A DNA stretch of 25,541 nucleotides. Origin: a virus. Taxonomy: Duplodnaviria > Caudoviricetes. This document shows, in pieces, positions 343 to 24,014 of this stretch (position 1 is the stretch's first letter; each line of letters opens with the position of its first letter). Made by a program: the position numbers and the translations under genes. A model generated the notes under the pieces. The model worked only from the letters and a program-made list of their open reading frames with translations. It had not been told where the DNA came from and made no database searches. The stretch spans positions 1 through 25,541 of the IMG/VR virus record IMGVR_UViG_3300031977_003074; one strand, 5' to 3'.

Positions 343-1076
343 ACGATTGGTGTATCCTTATTTAAACCTGCTGAGAAGTGACGTATAATTACTGGCCCAG
401 TTTCAGGTTTTGTTATCGCCCAATTAAGTGCGTTATAATAGTTCCATCTCAAGTCGTCGTCAAAGATCCCGACTTTGAGATCCTTATATTTTTCTTCTTT
501 TTCAGTTAACCACCAGAGTGAGAACTGATCCCAAGACTTGAGACTGTCCGCGTACCCTTTAGGCCACCAAGTATCGTTCATTTGACGATACGTTAAGTCC
601 CACCAATCATCCATAAATTCACGTACGATTGGTTTCGTCATATCATATAAACACACTGCACCGCACAATGTAAACTTCGCCTTACCTTCTGGTGTGTCGA
701 AGTCTCGTTCTGCGTAGATGTAATCACGGTCATCTGTTAGAGCAGAGAAAACCATATCATGGTCTTTAATCTCATCCCAAACCTTTACGATGTCTTCGTG
801 CTCACATTCCATGTCAGCGTCAATGTACATGGTCAAGTCGTAAGGTGACTTCGCCATGCCCCATAACTTAGCGCGGTAGTGGTCATCACAGAAGATAACG
901 TCGTCTGCAACATCCCTACCTCTATCGTCAAGGAATCTTTCCTCAGTTACTAGACAGATCTTACATTCGTCTTCTGGTTCGTAGAAGTCACGAATCGACT
1001 CTGCCAAGTTAACCGCGTACAGATAGAAGTTATGCTTCTGTGACGCGACGATTACAAATCCTTTACTCTTTTCCAT
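339..1076 (-). CDS. Putative GT-A fold glycosyltransferase (nucleotide-diphospho-sugar transferase-like)
   Basis: N-terminal GFVIVA strand, 'A..LAESIR' helix, 'RAKLWGMAKSPYDLTMYIDAD' (K...SPYD.T.Y.DxD motif) and a later 'WDQFSLW' motif typical of GT8-like/GT-A enzymes. Confidence 0.75.
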   Translation of the reverse strand: MEKSKGFVIVASQKHNFYLYAVNLAESIRDFYEPEDECKICLVTEERFLDDRGRDVADDVIFCDDHYRAKLWGMAKSPYDLTMYIDADMECEHEDIVKVWDEIKDHDMVFSALTDDRDYIYAERDFDTPEGKAKFTLCGAVCLYDMTKPIVREFMDDWWDLTYRQMNDTWWPKGYADSLKSWDQFSLWWLTEKEEKYKDLKVGIFDDDLRWNYYNALNWAITKPETGPVIIRHFSAGLNKDTPIV

Positions 1077-1524
1077 TCTCTTCGGCCTCTAGCATTTCTT
1101 GAAGAATCATGATTGAGTACAAGTCTACCTCAATGCGTGACTTCGCACGACGTAGTTTTGCCTTCAACTTGCGGTTCTTAGAGTTCTTAATCTCTTCGAC
1201 CTCGAACGCCTCCAACTTGTAGTTGAAGAGTTTCTCAAGTTTACGCGCCTTCCTATGTTCTAGTTCGCGCTGTTTTTCTTCTTCTGCTTCGGCTGTTTTA
1301 CGAACGACACGGTCTTCCGTTTCCTTGTCAATCGTTTCTTCACCTAGTGACGCAACAACCTCATCAAATAATTCGTTGGGATTGCCATCACGATCTAATC
1401 TGTTTAACAACATTACCTGACGGGTAACACGACCAACATCGTCTTCCATTTCTAGGATACAGTTCAACTGTTCTTTTGCGTCTGTTTCCCAGAAGGCGTT
1501 ATCCATCCATCTTCTGTAACTCAT
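1063..1524 (-). CDS. Hypothetical protein with charged, helical C-terminal half
   Basis: ORF track gives 1063..1539 from a TTG. The ATG at 1524 (MSYRRWMDNAFWE) has a GGAGA ribosome-binding site 8 nt upstream. Overlaps the start of the downstream glycosyltransferase gene. Confidence 0.75.
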   Translation of the reverse strand: MSYRRWMDNAFWETDAKEQLNCILEMEDDVGRVTRQVMLLNRLDRDGNPNELFDEVVASLGEETIDKETEDRVVRKTAEAEEEKQRELEHRKARKLEKLFNYKLEAFEVEEIKNSKNRKLKAKLRRAKSRIEVDLYSIMILQEMLEAEENGKE

Positions 1525-1572
1525 TAAGTCATTCTCCAAAAAGGTTCAATCAATTCAAATGTATATAGTGGG

Positions 1573-1638: not shown

Positions 1639-4600
1639 TTATGCAACCCTTACGTATAAAGTATATGTCTCAACCGTCGAGTAAGTTGGTTGAATAGTAG
1701 TACCAGTGTAGTTACCGATAAATGCACGTGAGTAATTACCAGTGAAGTCACGAGAATAGTTTCCAGTGAAGTCACGAGCGTAGTCACCAGTGTAGTTACC
1801 TGCGTAAGTTGATACACGAGTTCTGCCATAATCGAATGAGTAAGCAGAAGTACGTAGTCTTGAGTAAGCCGAGACACGTACACGTGAGAATGTATCAACA
1901 GAGTTACGAGTGTAATTACCGATGAAGTCACGCGAGTAGTTACCTACAAAGTTACCAGCGTATGCAGAGACACGGTTGCGGATGTAGTTACCTGCAAATG
2001 TGCGAGCATAGTTTCCAGTAAAGTTACCTACGAAGTCACGAGTGTAAGTACCTGCATATTCTCCTGCGAATGTACGCTGATAGTTTCCAACGAAGTCACC
2101 AGCAAACTCACGAGTGTACTGACCAGAGAAGTCACGAGTGTACTCACCCGCAAATGTGCGGTTGTAAGTTCCAGTGTATTCTCCAGCGAAGTTGCGAGAG
2201 TATGTTCCAGTGTACTGACCAGAGAAGCCGCGTGAGTAAGTACCAGTGTATTCCCCTGCAAATCCGCGTGAGTAAGTACCTGAGTAAGTCGAGATACGGT
2301 CACGTGAGTAAGACTCAACACGAGTTCTTACGAAGTTGCGAGAGTAATTACCGATGTAGTCACGAGAGTACGCACCAGTGTATTCGCCAACGAAGTCACG
2401 AGAGTAGTTACCCGCGTAAGTTGAGAAGCGAGTGCGGACATACGCTGATACACGGTTGCGAGTAAAGTTGCGAGAGTAGTTACCCGCAAAGTCGCGTGAG
2501 TATGCACCAGTGTACTGGCCAGAGAATCCACGTGAGTAAGTACCAGTGTAAGTAGATACACGGTTACGTGAGTAAGTAGAGATACGCTCACGAGTGAAGT
2601 TACGTGAGTAGTTGCCTACAAAGTTACGTGCGTAGATTCCAGTATATTGACCAGAGAAGTTACGGCTGTATGTTCCAGTGTAAGTTGAAACACGGTTACG
2701 TGAGTACGAAGAAGTACGAGTACGTGAGAAGTCACGACTGTAGTTTCCTACGAAATCACGTGCGTAGTAACCAGTGTACTCACCAGCAAAGTCACGAGAG
2801 TAAGTACCAGCGTATGTCGATGGACGTGTACGCGAGTAAGAAGAAACGCGAGTACGACTAAAGTCACGTGAGTAGTTACCAGTGAACGTGCGGTTGTAAG
2901 TACCAGTGTATTCACCTACAAAGTTACGTGAGTAAACGCCAACGTATGCAGATGGGCGAGTACGTGAGTAAGTTGAAACACGGTTACGAGTGAACGTAGT
3001 AGTGTAGTTACCAGTAAATGTACGGTTGTAAGTACCAGTGTACTCTCCAACGAATCCACGTGAGTAAGTGCCTGAGAACGTTGAAGTACGTGCACGAGAG
3101 TAAGCAGATACGCGAGTTCTAGTGTAGTTACGCGCATAGTTACCAGTGAACGTGCGGTTGTAGGTGCCAGTGTACTCACCAACGAATGTGCGAGAGTAGT
3201 TACCCGCATATGATGATGGACGTACACGTGAGTAAGCAGAAACGCGAGTGCGAGTAAATGCACGTGCGTAATTACCTACGAAGCCACGGTTATAAGTTCC
3301 AGTGTACTCACCGACGAAGTTACGGTTGTAAGTACCAGTGTACTGACCAGAGAAACCACGTGAGTAGTTGCCTACGTACTGTCCAGAGAATCCACGAGTA
3401 TAGTTACCAACGTAGTTTCCTGCGAAGTTACCTACGTAATCACCGATGAAGTTACCCGCATAGTTGCGTGAGTAGTTACCAGTGAACGTACGTGCGTAGT
3501 TTCCTGCAAAGTTACCAGCGAAGTTAGTCACACGGTCACGAGTGTATGCAGACGAACGGTTGAGAACGTATGCAGATACACGAGTACGTGCGTATGCGCT
3601 GTAACGAGTTCTAGTTGAAGTACGAGTGTATTCACCAACATAGTTACCAGTATATTCACCTGCGAATCCGCGAGCGTAGTTACCCACATAGTTTCCTGCA
3701 AAGTTGCGGCTGTAGTTACCTACGAAGTTACCTGCGAAGTTTGTGACGCGGTCACGAGTGAAGTCACCAACATAGTCAGTGATACGAGTTCTTGCGTACG
3801 CTGAGTAACGTGAACGTACAGAGTCACGAGTTGACGTACGAGTAAAGTTACCTACGTAATCAGTTACACGAGTACGAGCATATGCACTAACACGGTTACG
3901 AGTTGAATCACGCGTTGAAGTACGAGTGAAGTCACCGATGTAGTTAGTGATACGAGTACGTGCGTAAGCAGAGTTACGAGTACGTGAGTAAGATGACGCA
4001 CGAGTTCTTGAGAATGCGCCTGCGTAGTTAGTTACGCGAGTTCTTGCGTATGCAGAGTAACGAGTACGAGTTGATGTGCGAGTTGAAGTACGTGCGTAGT
4101 TACCTACGAAGTTACCAACATAATCACCAACGAATGTACGTCCGTAGTTGCCCACGAAGTTACCTACGTAATCACCGACGAATGTACGGCCATAGTTACC
4201 TACGAAGTCTCCCGCAAATCCACGTGCATAGTTACCTACGAAGTCGCCTGCGTAGTATCCAGTACGTGTATAGTATCCAGTACGTGTGTAGTCTGCAGCG
4301 TAGTTACGCGCATAGTTACCAATGAAGTTACCAACATAGTACAATGTACGAGTGTAGTAACCAGTGTTAGTAGAAACACGAGTACTGTTACGAGTGTAGT
4401 CTAGTGTTGCTGCACGGTTACGAGTATATGTACCAGTTGCAGTGTAGACGGTTGCACGAGTACGAGTGTAGTCTAGTGTTGCTGCACGGTTGCGAGAGTA
4501 TGCAACAGTAGAGACACGAGTACGTCCATAGTTCTGAGATACAGTACGTGCATAGTTACGGACAGAAGTACGAGTGTAGTATGCTACACCAGTGTAAGTT

Positions 4601-7600
4601 CCACCACCAACAGTTGACGTACGAGTCGATGTACGTGTTGAAGTACGAGTGTAGTAAGTTGTGCCACCGTAAGTAGTACGGGTATAGAAGTACAACTCAC
4701 CGTACAACCAACGTGAGTATTCTGCGAAACTAGTACCACCAGTACGTGCATAGTTACCAATGAAGTTACCAGTAAAGTTTCCTGCGTAGTCAGTACCAGC
4801 CGCAGTAGAACTTGTGTTACGAGCGTAATCACCGACGAAGTTTCCGCCTACGAAGTACTGCGGGAATGTACGGTTATAGTTACCGACGTAACTGACGTTA
4901 CGACTATAGTTACCAGTATACGTTACGCCACGAGTATAGTTACCTACGAAATCACCTGTATAGTACAATGTGCGAGTATAGTTACCCGTGTATGTTACGT
5001 TACGAGTGTAGTTACCAGTAAAGTCACCAGTGTAGTACAAAGTACGAGTGTAAGTACCAGTTGCAGTAAATGTCTGAGTACGGTCACGAGTAAACGCACG
5101 AGCGTAGTTACCAGTGTAGTACAGAGTACGAGTGTAACTTAGAGTACGAGTAGACGTACGAGTCGAAGTACGTGCATATGCGCTGTAGCGAGTACGTGTT
5201 GAAGTACGTGCGTATGCTGAACCACGGTTACGAGTATAGTTAGTAGCACGAGTACGAGTGTACGCCGAACCACGGTTACGAGTATAGTTGGTTGCACGAG
5301 TACGCGCATATTCACCAACGAAGTTACCCGCAAAGTCACCAGCGAATCCACGAGAATAGTTTCCTACGAAGTCACCAGCATAGTTTCTTGTGTAGTTACC
5401 GACGAAGTTGCGGCCATAGTTACCCACAAAGTTGCGAGCATAGTTACCAACAAAGTCTCCGGTAAAGGTAGTTGCATAGTTACCGACAAAGTTACCAGCG
5501 TAGTTACCGACGAAGGTACGTGCATAGTTACCTACAAAGTTACCAGTGAAGGTAGTAGTGTAGTTGCCTACGTAGTTACCAGCGTAGTTACCAGTGAATA
5601 GACGCGAGTAGTTACCCACGAAATCACCAGTAAAGGTAGTCGCATAGTTGCCAATAAAGTTACCAGCAAAGTTTGTGACGCGATCACGAGTGTATGCAGA
5701 ACCGCGAGTACGAGTAGAAGTACGCGCATAAGCTGAGTAACGAGTACGTGCAGAAACACGAGTCGATGTACGAGCGTAGTTACCAACATAGTTTCCTGCG
5801 AACGCACGTGAGTAGTTGCCCACGAAGTTGCGAGAATAGTTGCCTACGAAAGTACGAGCGTAGTTACCAATGAAGTTACCTGCAAAGTTTGTAACACGGT
5901 CACGGACATATGATGATACACGTGCGCGTGAGAAGATACCAGCAAAGTTGGTTACACGGTCACGAGTAAAGTTAGTTGCACGTACACGAGTGTAGTCAGC
6001 AGAGTATGCAGAAACACGAGTACGCGAATAAGTTCCCGCGTATGCCGATACACGGTTGCGTGAGTATGTTCCTGAGTATGCTGAAACACGAGTACGTGAG
6101 TAAGTACCTGAGTACGCGCTAGTGCGAGTACGAGTATAATTACGTGAGTAGTTTCCTACGAATCCACGGCTGTAGTTACCAGTGAAGTTACGTGAGTAAG
6201 TTCCCGCATAAGTTGAAACACGGTTGCGTGAATAAGTTCCAGTGTAAGAACTAACACGTCCACGAGTAAATGCGCGAGCATAGTTCCCTTGGAAGTTACG
6301 AGTGTAGTTTCCTACGAAATCACGTGCATAGGTACCACTGAACGTTGAGTTACGAGTACGTGAATAAGTTCCTGCGAAACTAGAAACACGGCCACGAGTA
6401 AAGTTACCAACGTAGTTACCAGCGAATCCACGGCTGTAGTTACCTACGTAGTTTCTTGAGTAGTAACCAGTGTACGCTGAGTTACGAGTTCTTGAGTAAG
6501 TACCAGTGAACGAAGAAACACGTCCGCGTGTGAATGAGTTAGTATATTCACCAACAAATGCACGGTTGTAGTTACCTACGAATGTGCGGCCATATGTACC
6601 AGTGTATGAAGATACACGAGTACGACCATACTCACCAGCGTAAGCAGAAGTACGCGTACGTGAGAATGCACCAGTATATTCACCGATGAAGTCACGTGAA
6701 TAGTTTCCTGCGAAACCGCGTGAGTAGTTGCCTACGTAAGTTGATACGCGAGTACGTGAATACGTTCCAGTGTATGAAGATACACGAGTACGTGCGAACT
6801 CACCAGTGTAGTTTCCTGCAAACCCACGAGTATACTCTCCAGCGAATCCGCGAGAGTAAGTTCCTGAGTAAGTAGAAATACGGTTACGTGAGTAAGTACC
6901 AGAATATGAACTTACACGAGTACGACCAAACTCACCAGTATAGTTACCTGCAAATCCGCGGCTGTAGTTTCCTACAAATGCGCGAGCATAGTAACCAGTG
7001 TACGATGAGTTACGAGTACGTGAGTAAGTACCTGAGAAAGATGATGTACGAGTACGCGAGAATTCACCTGCATAGTTACCTTGGAAAGAACGAGTATACT
7101 CTCCAGTAAATGCACGAGAATATGTACCAATGTATGCAGAGACGCGGTTACGTGCGTAAGTGCCAGTGTAAGTACTGATTCTGTTACGTGAGTAAGTTCC
7201 AGTATACGCTGAGTTACGGACACGGTTGTATGTACCAGTATAGGTAGATACACGGCCACGTGCATAGGTTGAGGTACGAGTGCGCGAGAAAGTTCCGGTG
7301 AAGTCTGTTACACGGTTACGAGTGAACGTTGACAAACGTGCACGAGAGTAGTAACCTGTAAATCCACCAGTAAATCCTTGTAGACGTACACGAGTGTAAG
7401 TAGACTGACGGTTTAAAATGTACTCGCCAGTAAACGTACGTGAGAAATTGGTGACACGGTCACGACTGTAAGTCGATGGACGTGTACGACTGTATTCACC
7501 GATAAAGTCCCCTACATAATTACCGGCAAAGTTACGACTGTAGTTACCAGCGAAATCGCGAGTGTAATTACCAACGTAATTACCTGCAAAGTCACGAGTA

Positions 7601-8487
7601 CTAGTTCGAGTAGAGACACGACTAAAGGTCGATGCGCGATCACGAGTATATGCTGATACGCGAGTACGTACGTATGAACTGTTACGAATACGCGAATAAG
7701 AAACTTCCGCAGTATTACGACGTGTGTTCAGTGCAGTACCAACTGCCTTCCATGTGCCTGGGGCCGTTGGTGCGCCTTGTGCAGATGAACGTAACTGGTA
7801 AGAACCAATTGCACCCGCAGTTGCACGTAGAGTTTTAATTCTTTGACCTAGAGTGTACTGAATCTGTGCGTCAGTCATCTCTTGGAAACCGTCGAAGTTT
7901 CCGCTACCGTCGTACTTAGTCGCGACCGGACGAACTGCATCGATTGCAGTCATGTTGGTGCGCAAGTAGATATTGTAGGTGGTTGATGAACCGTCGCCAC
8001 GAGTGTCTTGGAAGACATTCGGGATGAAGACAGTGTAATCAACGCCTGGGCTTGATGATGCTAGTTTGAATGTACCTACGTAATCATTTTGTGCAAGATT
8101 ACCTAGAACACGGTTAGCAAGTGAATTCAAATCCCCGTCTACCATTTCGTAGAAGCCAGGGTTTGTTGTATCGTAGTATCCTACTGGACGGACAAAGTCT
8201 GCACCGGATTCATCTGCTGGACCACCGTTTTGATAAACAGTAGTAGTAGTTGTACCGGAAGTGATTTGTGATGCTGGGTGAGTTCCCGTCGCTTCATTAA
8301 AGAAGGTATCGACGAATGTACCGATGCTCACATCACCTGTTAGACTAATGTGGCCGACATCACTTGAAGGTGCTGCGGCTAGTGCTTGTCCCACTGCATA
8401 CGCAAGATAGTTTTCTTCCGTAGGAGTGAATTCCTGTAGGTCACCATTCGAATTTTTGATTTTTAATGGGATGCTCGATGCTGACAC
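1639..8487 (-). CDS. Giant 2282-aa putative virion fibre protein: ~263-aa N-terminal domain, 2000-aa Y/F-x-R/G-x tetrapeptide repeat insert, and a short C-terminal strand
   Basis: Single 6.85-kb open frame; GTG start preceded by GAGAG; late promoter upstream; terminator downstream; follows a tail fibre chaperone gene. The virion role is inferred from context. Confidence 0.85.
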   Translation of the reverse strand: MSASSIPLKIKNSNGDLQEFTPTEENYLAYAVGQALAAAPSSDVGHISLTGDVSIGTFVDTFFNEATGTHPASQITSGTTTTTVYQNGGPADESGADFVRPVGYYDTTNPGFYEMVDGDLNSLANRVLGNLAQNDYVGTFKLASSSPGVDYTVFIPNVFQDTRGDGSSTTYNIYLRTNMTAIDAVRPVATKYDGSGNFDGFQEMTDAQIQYTLGQRIKTLRATAGAIGSYQLRSSAQGAPTAPGTWKAVGTALNTRRNTAEVSYSRIRNSSYVRTRVSAYTRDRASTFSRVSTRTSTRDFAGNYVGNYTRDFAGNYSRNFAGNYVGDFIGEYSRTRPSTYSRDRVTNFSRTFTGEYILNRQSTYTRVRLQGFTGGFTGYYSRARLSTFTRNRVTDFTGTFSRTRTSTYARGRVSTYTGTYNRVRNSAYTGTYSRNRISTYTGTYARNRVSAYIGTYSRAFTGEYTRSFQGNYAGEFSRTRTSSFSGTYSRTRNSSYTGYYARAFVGNYSRGFAGNYTGEFGRTRVSSYSGTYSRNRISTYSGTYSRGFAGEYTRGFAGNYTGEFARTRVSSYTGTYSRTRVSTYVGNYSRGFAGNYSRDFIGEYTGAFSRTRTSAYAGEYGRTRVSSYTGTYGRTFVGNYNRAFVGEYTNSFTRGRVSSFTGTYSRTRNSAYTGYYSRNYVGNYSRGFAGNYVGNFTRGRVSSFAGTYSRTRNSTFSGTYARDFVGNYTRNFQGNYARAFTRGRVSSYTGTYSRNRVSTYAGTYSRNFTGNYSRGFVGNYSRNYTRTRTSAYSGTYSRTRVSAYSGTYSRNRVSAYAGTYSRTRVSAYSADYTRVRATNFTRDRVTNFAGIFSRARVSSYVRDRVTNFAGNFIGNYARTFVGNYSRNFVGNYSRAFAGNYVGNYARTSTRVSARTRYSAYARTSTRTRGSAYTRDRVTNFAGNFIGNYATTFTGDFVGNYSRLFTGNYAGNYVGNYTTTFTGNFVGNYARTFVGNYAGNFVGNYATTFTGDFVGNYARNFVGNYGRNFVGNYTRNYAGDFVGNYSRGFAGDFAGNFVGEYARTRATNYTRNRGSAYTRTRATNYTRNRGSAYARTSTRTRYSAYARTSTRTSTRTLSYTRTLYYTGNYARAFTRDRTQTFTATGTYTRTLYYTGDFTGNYTRNVTYTGNYTRTLYYTGDFVGNYTRGVTYTGNYSRNVSYVGNYNRTFPQYFVGGNFVGDYARNTSSTAAGTDYAGNFTGNFIGNYARTGGTSFAEYSRWLYGELYFYTRTTYGGTTYYTRTSTRTSTRTSTVGGGTYTGVAYYTRTSVRNYARTVSQNYGRTRVSTVAYSRNRAATLDYTRTRATVYTATGTYTRNRAATLDYTRNSTRVSTNTGYYTRTLYYVGNFIGNYARNYAADYTRTGYYTRTGYYAGDFVGNYARGFAGDFVGNYGRTFVGDYVGNFVGNYGRTFVGDYVGNFVGNYARTSTRTSTRTRYSAYARTRVTNYAGAFSRTRASSYSRTRNSAYARTRITNYIGDFTRTSTRDSTRNRVSAYARTRVTDYVGNFTRTSTRDSVRSRYSAYARTRITDYVGDFTRDRVTNFAGNFVGNYSRNFAGNYVGNYARGFAGEYTGNYVGEYTRTSTRTRYSAYARTRVSAYVLNRSSAYTRDRVTNFAGNFAGNYARTFTGNYSRNYAGNFIGDYVGNFAGNYVGNYTRGFSGQYVGNYSRGFSGQYTGTYNRNFVGEYTGTYNRGFVGNYARAFTRTRVSAYSRVRPSSYAGNYSRTFVGEYTGTYNRTFTGNYARNYTRTRVSAYSRARTSTFSGTYSRGFVGEYTGTYNRTFTGNYTTTFTRNRVSTYSRTRPSAYVGVYSRNFVGEYTGTYNRTFTGNYSRDFSRTRVSSYSRTRPSTYAGTYSRDFAGEYTGYYARDFVGNYSRDFSRTRTSSYSRNRVSTYTGTYSRNFSGQYTGIYARNFVGNYSRNFTRERISTYSRNRVSTYTGTYSRGFSGQYTGAYSRDFAGNYSRNFTRNRVSAYVRTRFSTYAGNYSRDFVGEYTGAYSRDYIGNYSRNFVRTRVESYSRDRISTYSGTYSRGFAGEYTGTYSRGFSGQYTGTYSRNFAGEYTGTYNRTFAGEYTRDFSGQYTREFAGDFVGNYQRTFAGEYAGTYTRDFVGNFTGNYARTFAGNYIRNRVSAYAGNFVGNYSRDFIGNYTRNSVDTFSRVRVSAYSRLRTSAYSFDYGRTRVSTYAGNYTGDYARDFTGNYSRDFTGNYSRAFIGNYTGTTIQPTYSTVETYTLYVRVA
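1699..7698 (-). repeat. Coding low-complexity repeat with 12-nt/4-aa periodicity (YTRN, FAGN, RVSA, YTGT, STRT units), plus 44-aa higher-order repeats at 6151-7074 and 2347-3270
   Basis: Seen directly in the translation. Synonymous variation between units shows the constraint is at protein level. Confidence 0.95.
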
Positions 8488-8531: not shown

Positions 8532-8539
8532 TATTTATA
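8532..8539 (-). promoter_or_regulatory. T4-type late promoter TATAAATA upstream of the giant repeat gene
   Basis: Perfect TATAAATA on the minus strand, about 45 nt upstream of the start at 8487. Confidence 0.8.
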
Positions 8540-8541
8540 AG

Positions 8542-8581
8542 AAAACGATACGCAGAAACCCATCAATCTGCGTATCATTTT
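8542..8581 (-). terminator. Stem-loop, probable intrinsic terminator (possibly bidirectional)
   Basis: GATACGCAGA (8547-8556) and TCTGCGTATC (8567-8576) form a perfect 10-bp inverted repeat, flanked by A and T tracts. Confidence 0.7.
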
Positions 8582-8591
8582 TCACTTCTGT

Positions 8592-8599
8592 TATTTATA
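8592..8599 (-). promoter_or_regulatory. T4-type late promoter TATAAATA (second copy, upstream of the stem-loop)
   Basis: Perfect motif just after the stop codon of the chaperone gene. Confidence 0.6.
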
Positions 8600-10283: not shown

Positions 10284-11180
10284 TTAAAACTCCAATAAGG
10301 GTACACGTGTATCGTGCAGTTTATCTTGTCCCTTCAATTTTTCTAATTCCTCAAGGAGAATGGCCATCCATTCGATAAAACCCTTCCCCGCGTCTTTTTG
10401 ACTTTCTTTCAAAGCAATACCAGATATACGTACGTCGTACATATAAGTAGGATACTTTTCATCATGAGCAAACATTTTCAATTCACCTCGCTCATGCGCG
10501 TCTTTTAGTTCAAGGTATTGAAGAGTATCTTCACCTACCGTCAAACCTTTAAATCTGTAGGGTAAGACTTTCCGCGACATGAATACAAGTCGCGTACTTA
10601 ATTCGTCAATACCCATGCTGTGTTGTAAAGTTTTTATGTAACGTTTGAACATATCCACTTCACTCACAGTGATGTCCGGCACATTGTCTGCAACTAACCT
10701 ACCGTCTGCAAGTTTGTTCCAGTCTTCAACTACTGCCTGTTGTTCATACTTTCTAGTGAGATTGACAGGGTCTTCATGTGGCCTAACCGGATCTTGACTT
10801 CTATCTCTAAGACTATGATCCTGAGAGGTAAGATTGACTTGATTGAACAAGATCACCGCGTCGGGTGCGTCTTCACTCTCTGCCAGTTTCTGATATAACT
10901 TAACCCCTCTTGGAGTTAGGTAATCATCCCCGTCTATCAACACTGCATATGGTACACCATCAGCATCAAATATGTCAAGGAAAGAATTCTTTCCTGTTGC
11001 AGCGGTACCGTCGCTGTCTGTTACAAAATAACGAACTTCGTTTTCCTCACAGTAGGTTATCGCTTGTTGACGAAATTCTACGTGAGTTGTATTTATTATT
11101 ACTGTCGTCTTATCTATTGGTAGTGTTTTAAACTGTCGCTTTAGTGCATAAATGTTGTGGCTAGATAAAACATAAAACAT
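10284..11180 (-). CDS. Putative GT-A (GT2-like) glycosyltransferase
   Basis: 'TVIINT', 'SDGTAATGKNSFLDIF', 'VLIDGDDYLTP' (DxD) and 'GED' motifs; paralog of 19168..20046. Confidence 0.75.
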   Translation of the reverse strand: MFYVLSSHNIYALKRQFKTLPIDKTTVIINTTHVEFRQQAITYCEENEVRYFVTDSDGTAATGKNSFLDIFDADGVPYAVLIDGDDYLTPRGVKLYQKLAESEDAPDAVILFNQVNLTSQDHSLRDRSQDPVRPHEDPVNLTRKYEQQAVVEDWNKLADGRLVADNVPDITVSEVDMFKRYIKTLQHSMGIDELSTRLVFMSRKVLPYRFKGLTVGEDTLQYLELKDAHERGELKMFAHDEKYPTYMYDVRISGIALKESQKDAGKGFIEWMAILLEELEKLKGQDKLHDTRVPLLEF

Positions 11181-11183
11181 ATA

Positions 11184-12638
11184 TTATAACAATCCTAATC
11201 GAACTCTTCTTGCGCTACCCTCATAGATATCAATTCGTTCGTTGGTGATTTCCATGTGGTCTGTACCAGTTAGGTCAGTACCAATATCTATCTGTCCGGT
11301 AACTGTTGCGTTAGACAGTTCAACTCCATTAGCGGTAACGGTAAATGGATTCACACCACCTGTACCATCGGTCGCAGTTGGAGTGACAATTTTAAATGTG
11401 TCTGCAGCGACAACGAAGTCCGCAGTAGTTCCGTCATTGGTAAACTCCAATCCAGAAACATATGGATCTGTAGTAGTACCTGCGGTCAAGTTCAATTGCC
11501 ACTGTGCAGATACACCACCTGTTTGTGCGTCTACATATGCAGTCAGTGATTGTTCTGCTGCAGCGATGTCGCTGTCAATTTGTGCCTGAAGAGTTAGGTC
11601 ATATGCACTTATTGCAGATTGAATTAAACCGTTCTCTTCAACGATTTCAGTTCTTAGATCATCAATCGCACCAGTGATTGCAGTTGAAGTAACTTCACCT
11701 GTTTGTGGATCGCGAATGAATACCGCGTTGTCCAGTTCAGTGAGACTATTACTAATAGAGGTTATCTGTCCACCCTGAGTACTAACAGTAGAACTCAATA
11801 CTGATCTTGCGTCAGCCTCTGCATCGACACGTGCATTTAGGTCACTATCAACTGAGATAAGTGATGCAGACACACTGTCTAATGCCTGAGACAATACAGT
11901 AATACCGGAATCGTTTGTATCGATTCGAGTCTCTAGAGTTTGTAACGCACCACCAACAGCCTCGATAACGTCACTGTCTGAGATTGTGATACCACTGTCA
12001 ATCAACTGTTGTAGGTTGACATCAAGTTGAGTTACGTTGGCAGCAACGATACTTAGATCACTGTCTGTTGCGTCGATACGTGTGTATAGATTGCTTACCG
12101 CGTTTGCGTTCGCAGTGATACGAGTATTTGTAGATTGATCTAACAATATCAGTTCAGCGTTGACTGAATCTACTATTCCAGCAAGAACAGTGATCGCGCT
12201 GTCATTCGCCTCAATCTGAGAAGTCAGTGTAGTGTTTGCGTTAGCGATTGCAGAAGCAAGTAGGTCTGAGTCAATACCACCCAAGACCATACTGTCAAGT
12301 TGTGCTTGAGTTGCAATCTGTGCCTGAGCAAGTACAAGGACACCCGAATCAGTTGCATCGATACGCGAAGTCAACTGAAATATAGCGGACGCGTTCGCAG
12401 AGATATCTGAATCTAGATATGAGACATCAGTCTCGATAGTGAACTGCTGAAGATATTCCTCATTGATTACGGTCAAGAAGTAATCAGAGTCAAGGACATT
12501 GTTAATGATGTTAGTAATATCAGCCGAGTCAATAGTGATATTACCAACCGCAGAATCCAATCCCGCAAAGTTCTGGTTGATCTTTAGTATCGCTGCGTTG
12601 ATGTTATCCGCAAGATTTACTACCTGTATGTTACTCAT
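11184..12638 (-). CDS. Coiled-coil tail fibre protein with a gpJ-like (DUF1983-like) C-terminal region
   Basis: N-terminal 'KINQNF' anchor; long heptad-like A/I/L/S/D/T-rich stalk; 'SAQWQLNL...YVSGLEF...ADFVVAADTFKI' resembles the gpJ central-fibre domain; ends in RIDIYEGSARRVRLGLL. Confidence 0.7.
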   Translation of the reverse strand: MSNIQVVNLADNINAAILKINQNFAGLDSAVGNITIDSADITNIINNVLDSDYFLTVINEEYLQQFTIETDVSYLDSDISANASAIFQLTSRIDATDSGVLVLAQAQIATQAQLDSMVLGGIDSDLLASAIANANTTLTSQIEANDSAITVLAGIVDSVNAELILLDQSTNTRITANANAVSNLYTRIDATDSDLSIVAANVTQLDVNLQQLIDSGITISDSDVIEAVGGALQTLETRIDTNDSGITVLSQALDSVSASLISVDSDLNARVDAEADARSVLSSTVSTQGGQITSISNSLTELDNAVFIRDPQTGEVTSTAITGAIDDLRTEIVEENGLIQSAISAYDLTLQAQIDSDIAAAEQSLTAYVDAQTGGVSAQWQLNLTAGTTTDPYVSGLEFTNDGTTADFVVAADTFKIVTPTATDGTGGVNPFTVTANGVELSNATVTGQIDIGTDLTGTDHMEITNERIDIYEGSARRVRLGLL

Positions 12639-19167: not shown

Positions 19168-20046
19168 TCAAGAGTCTTTCAAGAAATTATTTAACCACAC
19201 TTCTTTCTGGTGATGGTTCATCAAAAGATCTTTGTAAATCACTGGAAGTTCGTAGGGGCTACTGCGCCATTCTTGTACATGAAGACGCGCTTCCTCTCGC
19301 ATTGGTTCTAGGTAATCATAGTAGTCATGCACTTTCTGTGCACTACCTTCGGTGGTCCTATCAATACAATACATGTCACTGGACATTGTCAGAAAATAAC
19401 AGAGATTACCTTTCTGGTGTTGTCCTAGTAGTTTGTACGTGTAGGCATGATCCTCACCATTACCGATGTCTTCGTTCATCTTAAACTGCGCAGACTTACG
19501 ACTCTGCAACATAATGAAGTCAATGGATACGGGACGTTCGTCGATGAAGAGGTGACTCTTCTGTGGTCCCATATTGGGATGAGGTGCAGCCATTGATGTA
19601 CCCCACACACTCGCGTGATACTCATCGTTGACCCACCAGTAATGACCTGACTCCAGTGCCCAGTTACAAATACAGTCACACGGTACCACACCCAAAACAT
19701 CAATGCATGGGAAGTGTTTGACGTGATTGTATAGAGACTGTAGATACGAGGGATACAGAAAGTCGTCACCGTCAATCTGTGAGACGAAGTCCGCATCACT
19801 CTCTAGGAATACCTCCAGACAAGCGTTCTTACCCTTGCCTGGCTTTCCGTTACTTTCTGTATTGACTACACGAAACGGTTGATCAAGTTCTAAGACCTGT
19901 TCATAGTACCCCTCACGAGTACTATTGACAACGATCACAACCTCCCACTCAACCGGAGTTATCTTAACGACTCCCTGAACAGATCGAATCAACCGCTCCA
20001 ACTTTGGGACATCGTTTGATGTCAACAGAGTTGTCATGAGTTTCAT
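19168..20046 (-). CDS. Putative GT-A (GT2-like) glycosyltransferase
   Basis: 'VVIVVNS', 'ESNGKPGKGKNACLEVF', 'SQIDGDDFLYP' (DxD) and 'GED' motifs; start overlaps the stop of the upstream oxygenase gene. Confidence 0.8.
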   Translation of the reverse strand: MKLMTTLLTSNDVPKLERLIRSVQGVVKITPVEWEVVIVVNSTREGYYEQVLELDQPFRVVNTESNGKPGKGKNACLEVFLESDADFVSQIDGDDFLYPSYLQSLYNHVKHFPCIDVLGVVPCDCICNWALESGHYWWVNDEYHASVWGTSMAAPHPNMGPQKSHLFIDERPVSIDFIMLQSRKSAQFKMNEDIGNGEDHAYTYKLLGQHQKGNLCYFLTMSSDMYCIDRTTEGSAQKVHDYYDYLEPMREEARLHVQEWRSSPYELPVIYKDLLMNHHQKEVWLNNFLKDS

Positions 20047-20623: not shown

Positions 20624-23600
20624 TTACAACTCCCCAAGTCGTACTCTTCGAGCAGCACCTTCGTAAATATCAATACGTGTAGGTGAGAACTCAATACGAT
20701 CTCCGGTATCAGCAGTATTTAGAATACCACTAAGATCGATTATACCACCAGTAGTAGAACCTGTGGTACGTGTACCAGTAGTGATCTCTTCGAACACTGC
20801 ATCCGTTGTAGTGTCGATGCGATTCTGTGTAGAACGCCAGATACGTCCAGTGTTGATGTGCCACCAAATATCACCTTCGTAAATAGTGTCCACAGTACGG
20901 AACTGTCGAATAGCAGCAGATGCAGTCGAACTAATGTTTGATGGTAAGTTGGTCGATGTGTCGAACAATACCGCGTTACCGAATCCACCAACTGGACCCT
21001 GCGCACCCGTTGTACCAGCGACACCCGTCGCACCCTGTGGACCATCTGGGCCAGGTTGTCCTTGACCACCTTGAGGGCCCGGAGAACCTTGTGGCCCGTC
21101 TGGTCCGTCCGGACCTGTTTGTCCCTGAACACCCTGTGGTCCAGTATTACCTTGGGCACCTTGAGGACCGTTATTACCTGTCTGACCTTGGATACCTTGA
21201 GGACCAGTCGAACCCTGAGCACCTTGGGGACCATTGTTACCAGTCTGCCCTTGGATACCTTGTGGTCCAGTATTACCTTGGGCACCCTGCGGTCCATTGT
21301 TACCTGTTTGGCCTTGGATACCCTGTGGTCCAGTATTACCCTGAGCACCTTGAGGACCGTTGTTTCCGGTTTGTCCCTGAATACCCTGTGGTCCGGTATT
21401 ACCCTGAGCACCCTGTGGTCCATTGTTACCAGTCTGACCTTGGATACCTTGTGGTCCGGTAGAACCCTGAGCACCCTGTGGTCCGTTATTACCAGTCTGA
21501 CCTTGGATACCCTGAACACCTTGAGCACCTTGTGCGCCTTGAGGTCCGTTATTACCAGTTTGTCCCTGCAATCCCTGTGGACCAGTCGAACCCTGAGCAC
21601 CCTGCGGTCCATTGTTACCAGTTTGTCCCTGAATACCTTGAGGACCAGTAGAACCCTGCGCTCCTTGAGGACCATTGTTACCCGTTTGACCCTGCAATCC
21701 CTGTGGACCAGTTGAACCTTGTGCCCCTTGTGGGCCATTGTTACCAGTCTGTCCCTGCAATCCTTGTGGTCCGGTAGAACCCTGAGCACCTTGAGGACCA
21801 TTGTTACCCGTTTGACCTTGGATACCTTGGGCACCAGTCGAACCTTGCGCTCCTTGTGGTCCATTGTTACCCGTTTGTCCCTGAATACCTTGAGCACCAG
21901 TTACGCCCTGCGCTCCTTGTGGTCCATTGTTACCAGTCTGACCTTGGATACCTTGAGGACCAGTAGAACCCTGCGCTCCTTGAGGACCGTTGTTTCCGGT
22001 CTGTCCCTGCAATCCTTGTGGACCAGTTGAACCTTGGGCACCTTGAGGACCGTTGTTTCCCGTCTGACCTTGTAGACCCTGAGCACCTTGTGCACCTTGT
22101 GCACCAGTAGGGCCAGGAGTACCTGTAGTACCTTGGATACCCTGAACACCTTGTGGTCCCTGCGGTCCTTCTGGTCCGTCTGGACCTTGTGGGCCAGGTT
22201 CACCTGTATTACCTTGCGGTCCCTGCGGGCCAGGAGTTGTACCCGCTGGACCTTGTGGGCCAGGTTCACCCGTATTTCCTGTTGGACCCTGTGGGCCAGG
22301 TGTCGTTCCTGCTGGACCTTGTGGGCCAGGTTCACCTGTTGCACCACTTGGACCTTCTGGTCCGGTCTGACCTTGAATACCTTGGGCACCAGTTACACCC
22401 TGAGCACCAGTAGGGCCAGGTTGTCCTTGTAGACCCTGCACACCAGTTGCACCCGTAGCACCTTGTGGACCAGCAGGGCCAGGGTTACCTTGAAAACCTT
22501 GAGCACCATCTGGTCCAATTGGTCCTTGTGGTCCTTCAGGGCCAGGATCTCCTTGCAACCCTTGGATACCCGTTGTACCTTGTGGACCCTGCGGTCCTTC
22601 TGGGCCTGGGTCTCCAGTAAGACCTTGTGCGCCTGTAGTTCCTTGTGGACCCTGCGGTCCTTCTGGGCCTGGGTCTCCAGTAAGACCTTGTGCGCCTGTA
22701 GTTCCTTGTGCACCTTGTGGTCCTTCTGGGCCTGGGTCTCCCTGCAACCCCTGAATACCTTGTGGTCCAGTAGCACCTTGTGGTCCTTCAGGGCCAGGAT
22801 CTCCCTGCAATCCTTGGATACCTTGTGGTCCAGTAGCACCCTGCGGTCCTTCTGGGCCTGGGTCTCCCTGAAGTCCAGTAATACCCTGTGGTCCAGTAGC
22901 ACCCTGCGGTCCCTCTGGGCCTGGGTCTCCCTGAAGTCCAGTAATACCTTGAGCACCCTGAGAACCTTGTGGTCCTTCAGGGCCTGGGTTACCTTGCAAT
23001 CCTTGAATCCCCTGCGAACCTTGTGCACCTTGCGCACCAACTGGGCCAGGGTTACCCTGCAATCCTTGGATACCTTGAGCACCCTGAGAACCTTGCGGTC
23101 CTTCTGGGCCTGGATTACCCTGAAGACCCTGAATACCTTGCGAACCTTGTGCTCCCTGTGGTCCCTCTGGGCCAGGATTTCCTTGAAGTCCAGTAATACC
23201 CTGAGCGCCTTGTACACCTTGAGGACCAACTGGGCCTGGGTTCCCTTGAAGACCAGGAATACCCTGAGCACCTTGGGTACCTTGAGGTCCAGTCTCGCCA
23301 GGGTTACCTTGAAGACCCTGAATACCTTGGGCACCTTGGGCACCCTGTGCACCGACTGGGCCTGGGTTACCTTGAAGACCCTGAATACCCTGAGCACCTT
23401 GGGTACCTTGAGGACCAACTGGACCACCTCCACCTTGTGGACCGACTGGACCGATAATACCTTGAGGACCAACTCCACCGTCTGGACCCTGTGGACCAAG
23501 ATTACCTTGACCACCAACCGGACCTTGTGAGCCAACAGAACCCTGTGGTCCCAAAGGGCCCTGAGCACCCTGAGAACCCGTCACACCTTGTGGGCCTGGA

Positions 23601-23965
23601 GCACCCTGAGGGCCAACACCACCAATATCCGTATTCTCAATCAGAGTATTGATGTTTTGTACTTCGGTACTTAAAGTTGATGTTGTGGTGTTTAGATTAG
23701 TGATTAATGTATCGTGTGTATCAACACGTGCGTCTAGTACATTAATATCGTTTTGGTCGGATAGATTTGCAGCATTGACTGCTTCGGTGACTGCTTGGTC
23801 AACGTAGTTAGATAGAAATTCAGCAGTAATGCCACCTTCACCTGCAATGTCAAGAAGGGCGTAGATTTCTGCGAAGTTGGCATTGATTTTTTCACTGGCT
23901 TGACGGAGCGTATCACCTGTACCGTCGTTTACTGCACCACCAGTGTTAAGAGTCTGTCGAGTCAT
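20624..23965 (-). CDS. Collagen-like tail fibre protein with a T4 gp9/gp10-type N-terminal anchor
   Basis: N-terminus '[33 protein letters not shown]'; about 880 aa of Gly-X-Y; C-terminal globular region ending [17 protein letters not shown]. Confidence 0.9.
20981..23623 (-). repeat. Gly-X-Y collagen repeat (about 290 triplets) built from 21-aa/63-nt units
   Basis: Units such as [21 protein letters not shown] and [21 protein letters not shown], with two GTTP interruptions. Confidence 0.95.
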
Positions 23966-24006: not shown

Positions 24007-24014
24007 TATTTATA
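24007..24014 (-). promoter_or_regulatory. T4-type late promoter TATAAATA upstream of the collagen fibre gene
   Basis: Perfect motif in the intergenic gap, about 40 nt upstream of the ATG. Confidence 0.8.

Follow-up and report, generated by a model that had tools for sequence, protein, structure and literature searches.

A 2282-aa protein of a marine T4-like phage predicted to fold back on itself as a single-chain fibre of variable length

A 2282-aa protein from a marine T4-like phage, encoded on a 25.5-kb piece of a virus record (25,541 nucleotides, the whole of which is termed the window), is predicted to be a single-chain fold-back fibre, in which a beta-prism base bears one antiparallel hairpin, likely to stick out from the virion and to test host surfaces by means of a variable tip (rough probability, 0.6). 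The sequence and its family establish three related units, a single site with an insert that varies in length, a mirror register with a pairing code, and covariation between the N- and C-terminal segments; the fold itself is a prediction from modelling. The protein matched no family in Pfam or PHROG. In the proposed architecture (Table 1), residues 1-256 would combine with the 13 at the C-terminus into one three-fold repeated beta-prism base and, because the last strand is predicted to close unit 3, the intervening 2,013 residues would run out and then back as one hairpin.

Table 1. Features of the predicted fibre gene and its surroundings in the window.
Feature	Position (nt)	Strand	Remarks
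Gene for the 2282-aa predicted fold-back fibre protein	1639..8487	(-)	GTG start; start position common to relatives
Base unit 1, aa 7-87	8227..8469	(-)	Hairpin, helix, three-stranded sheet; 20-residue loop
Base unit 2, aa 100-176	7960..8190	(-)	Short GDG turn at nt 7998-7990
Base unit 3, N-terminal part, aa 186-256	7720..7932	(-)	Closing strand absent
Outgoing arm, aa 264-1112	5152..7698	(-)	Four-residue repeats, one register; 44- and 28-residue super-repeats
Neck and tip, aa 1113-1411	4255..5151	(-)	Mirror centre aa 1262; tip aa 1215-1310 (nt 4845-4558), most variable
Return arm, aa 1412-2260	1708..4254	(-)	Complementary to outgoing arm at i+j=2524
C-terminal strand, aa 2270-2282	1642..1680	(-)	Middle strand of the unit-3 sheet, as predicted by the model
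Two TATAAATA late-promoter-like motifs	8532..8599	(-)	At 8599-8592 and 8539-8532; flank inverted repeat 8576-8547, precede fibre gene
158-aa partner gene, family not known	1063..1539	(-)	Directly downstream of fibre gene

The region treated in the preliminary description, the first 263 codons of the open reading frame 1639-8487 (-), contains every motif quoted there at the position given, namely PLKIK (7-11) and GDLQEFT (15-21) in unit 1, RPVGY (100-104), PGFYEMV (110-116) and a hairpin (159-176) with GDG at 164-166 in unit 2, and RPVAT (186-190), DGFQEMT (199-205) and ALNTR (252-256) in unit 3. The three units had been proposed to be related, and they do align by profile (72-sequence alignment; U2-U3 probability 95.9, P = 5.8e-9; U1-U3 probability 86.5, P = 4.6e-6), with U1-U2 a weak pair (probability 0.4, P = 0.17). 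Pairwise, units 2 and 3 reached a score of 57 (shuffles 23.7 ± 4.4; 0/2000 reach 57) and unit 1 was not significant against the other units (448-1476 of 2000 shuffles as good); it is the most diverged, tied in only via unit 3 and the repeated secondary structure of the model. The claim that the insert replaces a 3-residue hairpin loop can be refined, in that a loop of this size is specific to unit 2; counting from the conserved [DN]T up to the closing strand gives loops of 20 (unit 1), 8 (unit 2), and 2019 (unit 3) residues. In four relatives (P0251, P0255, P0259, and P0277; two inspected directly), the corresponding unit 1 loop holds 96-178 residues, so this position is permissive in more than one unit.

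That the strand missing from unit 3 is supplied by the extreme C-terminus agrees with the structural models. Residues 1-263 folded alone kept the sheets of units 1 and 2 and formed no beta-strand in 222-263, while in a natural short relative with its own C-terminus the equivalent strands were modelled with pLDDT >=90. A unit-2 profile aligned exactly the two closing strands when compared with the last 30 residues (P = 0.0047), and the best non-self match of the unit 2 closing strand among all 10-residue windows of the protein was 2271-2280 (score 25; next 22). The N-terminal domain might instead be complete alone and the C-terminal likeness due to chance, as could be argued from the confidence of the isolated domain (pLDDT 91.6, pTM 0.87) and from a strand match that is modest by itself. 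This reading was already disfavoured and is highly improbable, since sheet 3 is strandless without the C-terminus, the positions T2274-R2280 belong to the columns that hardly vary across 136 sequences, the match to a known beta-prism domain discussed below requires the last strand, and covariation and register agree. Mean-field covariation (136 sequences, effective 93) placed S263-T2261 second among all pairs, followed by S263-N2259, A260-Q2266, E261-T2261, and N258-S2270, such that 257-263 are coupled with 2259-2270 in hairpin register, as expected if the N- and C-termini meet in one domain. Of the top 20 N-C couplings, 12 fall within 4.6% of the cells (8 row permutations gave 0-3); no covariation signal came from the last strand's invariant core. 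Unit 1 is coupled to the C-terminal segment through T50-V2272, and the couplings F63-R256 and R163-R257 suggest that the three loops meet at one apex.

The insert (1681-7719 (-), 2019 residues) contains 283 Arg and 84 Asp+Glu (net charge about +199) and no Lys, His, Cys, or Met. Four-residue words extend in a single register across both arms, which have 44- and 28-residue periodicity, plausibly the unit of slippage; at the DNA level, the two arms do not form an inverted repeat. Mutual information between mirrored positions was maximal at i+j=2524 (846 ungapped pairs). In that register, the partner of Arg on the large-residue face is Phe, Gly, or Ser in 238 of 244 cases (0.56 ± 0.09 at 200 other registers), a contrast that is descriptive because the rule was read from the same register; T, N, A, S, and V predominate on the other face. 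If the register is extrapolated to the base, the C-terminus comes to lie against 252-264. Overall, the mirror register, the complementary arms, and the N-C covariation in the same register support the out-and-back topology put forward in the preliminary description. The tip is 39-56% identical to four relatives, compared to 74-86% for the arms, and in the family it often contains a small globular-looking segment, a pattern suggestive of a receptor-binding end.

Mechanistically, the ribbon face of Arg, Tyr, Gly, Phe, and Ser would zip through Arg-Phe, Tyr-Tyr, and Arg-over-Gly pairs, with the opposite face probably small and polar. The chain may zip back starting at the tip, and the last strand would lock the register in the base upon completion of the chain. 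Length would presumably change by gain or loss of a 44- or 28-residue super-repeat, retained only if both arms match. About 1,000 pairs could give a maximal length of about 330-350 nm, which coiling would shorten. The base might anchor the protein, perhaps through the product of the 158-aa downstream gene, and the protein would sit on the virion, where its tip would make the first host contact.

Searches returned 37 + 69 viral loci, including the present contig, 58 + 598 proteins (best 120 of 598), and 346 cluster representatives (best 150 of 346). Among the matches listed, at least 298 distinct sequences with the junction motif and the last strand (excluding those that lack either or are ended by a contig edge) have inserts of 101-3081 residues (median, 433) and none is free of an insert. 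Homologues thus vary in insert length at the very site anticipated, and together with the enlarged unit 1 loops this supports the suggested extensible scaffold. The register keeps its offset from the junction (-5 to -7) in 21 of 24 complete long members, including the present protein (exceptions L004, L033, and C48C1). A pair potential learnt from the present protein only peaked at -8 to -4, out of 81 offsets, in 133 of 202 members (22/24 members >1000 residues; about half at 200-1000). Net indels were equal in both arms in 6 of the 13 pairs compared and 8-32 residues apart in the others; one pair had an unpaired 24-residue loss. Two contigs (run X6) are each 264 nt short, one at aa 1851-1939 and the other within 565-675, sites that mirror each other, though linkage of the two deletions is assumed because the contigs are separate. 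The near-identical short members P0128, P0117, P0102, P0093, and P0110 show length differences in multiples of 12 residues that are confined to one arm, reflecting either tolerated bulges or assembly errors. Among 50,697 GenBank phage records, the family is carried by one, Phage C48C1 (OQ984149, Kyanoviridae, host not given), as a 3347-aa hypothetical protein. In C48C1 (L038, 20001-30044), only the return arm has inserted non-repeat, globular-looking segments without a Pfam match (around aa 1800-2050 and from aa 2390 onwards), with a local duplication near aa 2009-2155 and a pairing register that shifts stepwise.

The (-) strand of the window also encodes baseplate wedge, T4 gp8-like, tail-tip, and tail-chaperone genes, the last adjoining the fibre gene here and an inconstant neighbour elsewhere (17 of 64 upstream genes scanned). 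The motif TATAAATA, the T4 late-promoter consensus in the available text of PMC1524935, occurs <=220 nt upstream of the gene at 32 of the 67 distinct loci, compared with none of 67 control stretches taken from within the gene, and is absent from the (+) strand of the window. Two further copies, at 24014 and 19159 (-), lie upstream of a collagen-like gene and the gp8-like gene. Gene context, the late-promoter motif, and tip variability would be in keeping with a role on the virion in host binding. The 158-aa gene was directly downstream in 79 of 79 testable loci (profile built from 39 sequences, mostly out of the same 79 loci) and in GenBank is present only in C48C1; its charged product is a candidate chaperone or anchor of the fibre protein. 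Three proteins with DxD-like motifs are encoded among the fibre genes (339-1076, 10284-11180, and 19168-20046 (-)), of which only 19168-20046 matched Pfam glycosyltransferase family 2; speculatively, they could modify the Thr/Ser/Asn-rich ribbon face or the collagen-like (Gly-X-Y) fibre, a 1113-aa protein (20624-23965 (-)) that ends in a short C-terminal motif common to the 484-aa tail-tip protein (11184-12638).

The mirror code and the covariation would fit pairing within or between chains equally, and two chains, swapping domains as an antiparallel dimer or supplied as tandem paralogues, would complete each other's base with their last strands and yield a rod about twice as long with a base at each end. 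Two tandem paralogues with no intervening gene, usually of differing length and with differing tips, are present at 46 of 106 loci (L045-L107), and a swap would spare the base from waiting 2,000 residues to close. However, pairing between chains is unlikely given the single copy in the present window and 60 of 106 loci, a centre that is a variable, often globular knob, as expected for a tip, a short relative that closes on itself in a single-chain model (a model biased to the monomer), and the precedent of T4 gp37, the needle of which is inserted in domain D10 of its own chain (PMC6957217). A lone two-stranded ribbon may be too floppy, and hairpins from several chains could bundle into a multi-stranded needle like that of the gp37 trimer; gp37, gp10, gp11, and gp12 are all trimers with a related collar fold (PMC6957217, PMC3004832), the small polar face could pack on another ribbon, and confidence in the stalk is low when it is modelled as a monomer. 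Bundling is improbable, as three units are already within the base of one chain, the insert offers neither His nor Cys to metal sites of the gp37 type, and the large-residue face is self-complementary inside one hairpin.

The Arg-rich, Lys-free insert and the inconstancy of the tail-chaperone gene as a neighbour would also suit a nucleic-acid-binding or length-measuring filament rather than a host-catching fibre, but short members are net acidic (median, -0.034 per residue), lengths span 30-fold with variation concentrated at the tip, and the gene sits among fibre and baseplate genes, making such a function quite improbable. If the single-chain fold-back fibre is correct, a single beta-turn can grow from 8 residues to more than 3,000 with the carrier domain undisturbed, its register encoded by a complementary code in the manner of an RNA stem. 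This would bear on the folding of very long chains whose first domain needs their last residues, suggest how marine phages could reach distant hosts in dilute water, and offer a length-programmable single-chain scaffold with a swappable tip. Natural members of 363-450 residues put structure determination directly within reach.

The insertion principle is already known; the literature searched contained no triple base formed by a single chain and bearing one self-complementary hairpin of 100-3,000 residues. T4 gp37 (collar D10 and needle D11) is a homotrimer with a needle that contains seven His-liganded iron sites and an insert of 128 residues, whereas the present protein has three units per chain, a long insert (101-3081 aa in the family) in the third only, and arms that obey a complementary four-residue code; gp37-type His-coordinated iron sites are absent from its His-free insert (1.4-2.7 His per 1000 residues in the family). 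Like the T4 collar, or flower, the domain is predicted, in line with covariation, to be closed around an inserted domain by the extreme C-terminal strand. Pfam Collar and Gp10_C (PF07484, PF21939) gave no match, though the PF21939 control also matched nowhere; hhalign against gp10 was not significant (P = 0.11-0.18), though at the expected place, and a post hoc motif ranked gp10 and gp11 above 342 unrelated proteins. A possible functional analogue is provided by the long thin capsid or head fibres of the flagellotropic phages 7-7-1 and phiCbK (88-114 nm in 7-7-1), which make first contact at a distance and whose structure is given as unknown in the available text of PMC12796354; the present gene sits in a tail cluster. 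Another close system is the domain called MABP, for MVB12-associated beta-prism (8b6v, 2qp2, 3tow, and MPEG1/perforin-2 6sb1 and 6u23), to which the match depends on inclusion of the last strand. No likeness to it was detected by sequence in Pfam (33 members, E up to 10) or the PDB (E up to 1). Its three homologous internal repeats have their counterpart in U1-U3 and U2-U3 (significant; U1-U2 not) and in the secondary structure repeated in the model. Its PXGY signature at the second strand does not recur exactly; units 2 and 3 have conserved Pro and Gly residues ahead of a strand that begins with an aromatic (P147; P240, G244, W246). Tentatively, the protein may be a monomeric stem-loop, in which three collar-like units fused into an MABP-like prism replace the fibre trimer and one loop has grown into a free-standing two-stranded beta-ribbon of up to about 0.35 micrometres, kept in register by a four-residue pairing code, with an exchangeable receptor-binding tip; it would then represent a phage appendage of a new class and connect T4 collar trimers with MABP domains.
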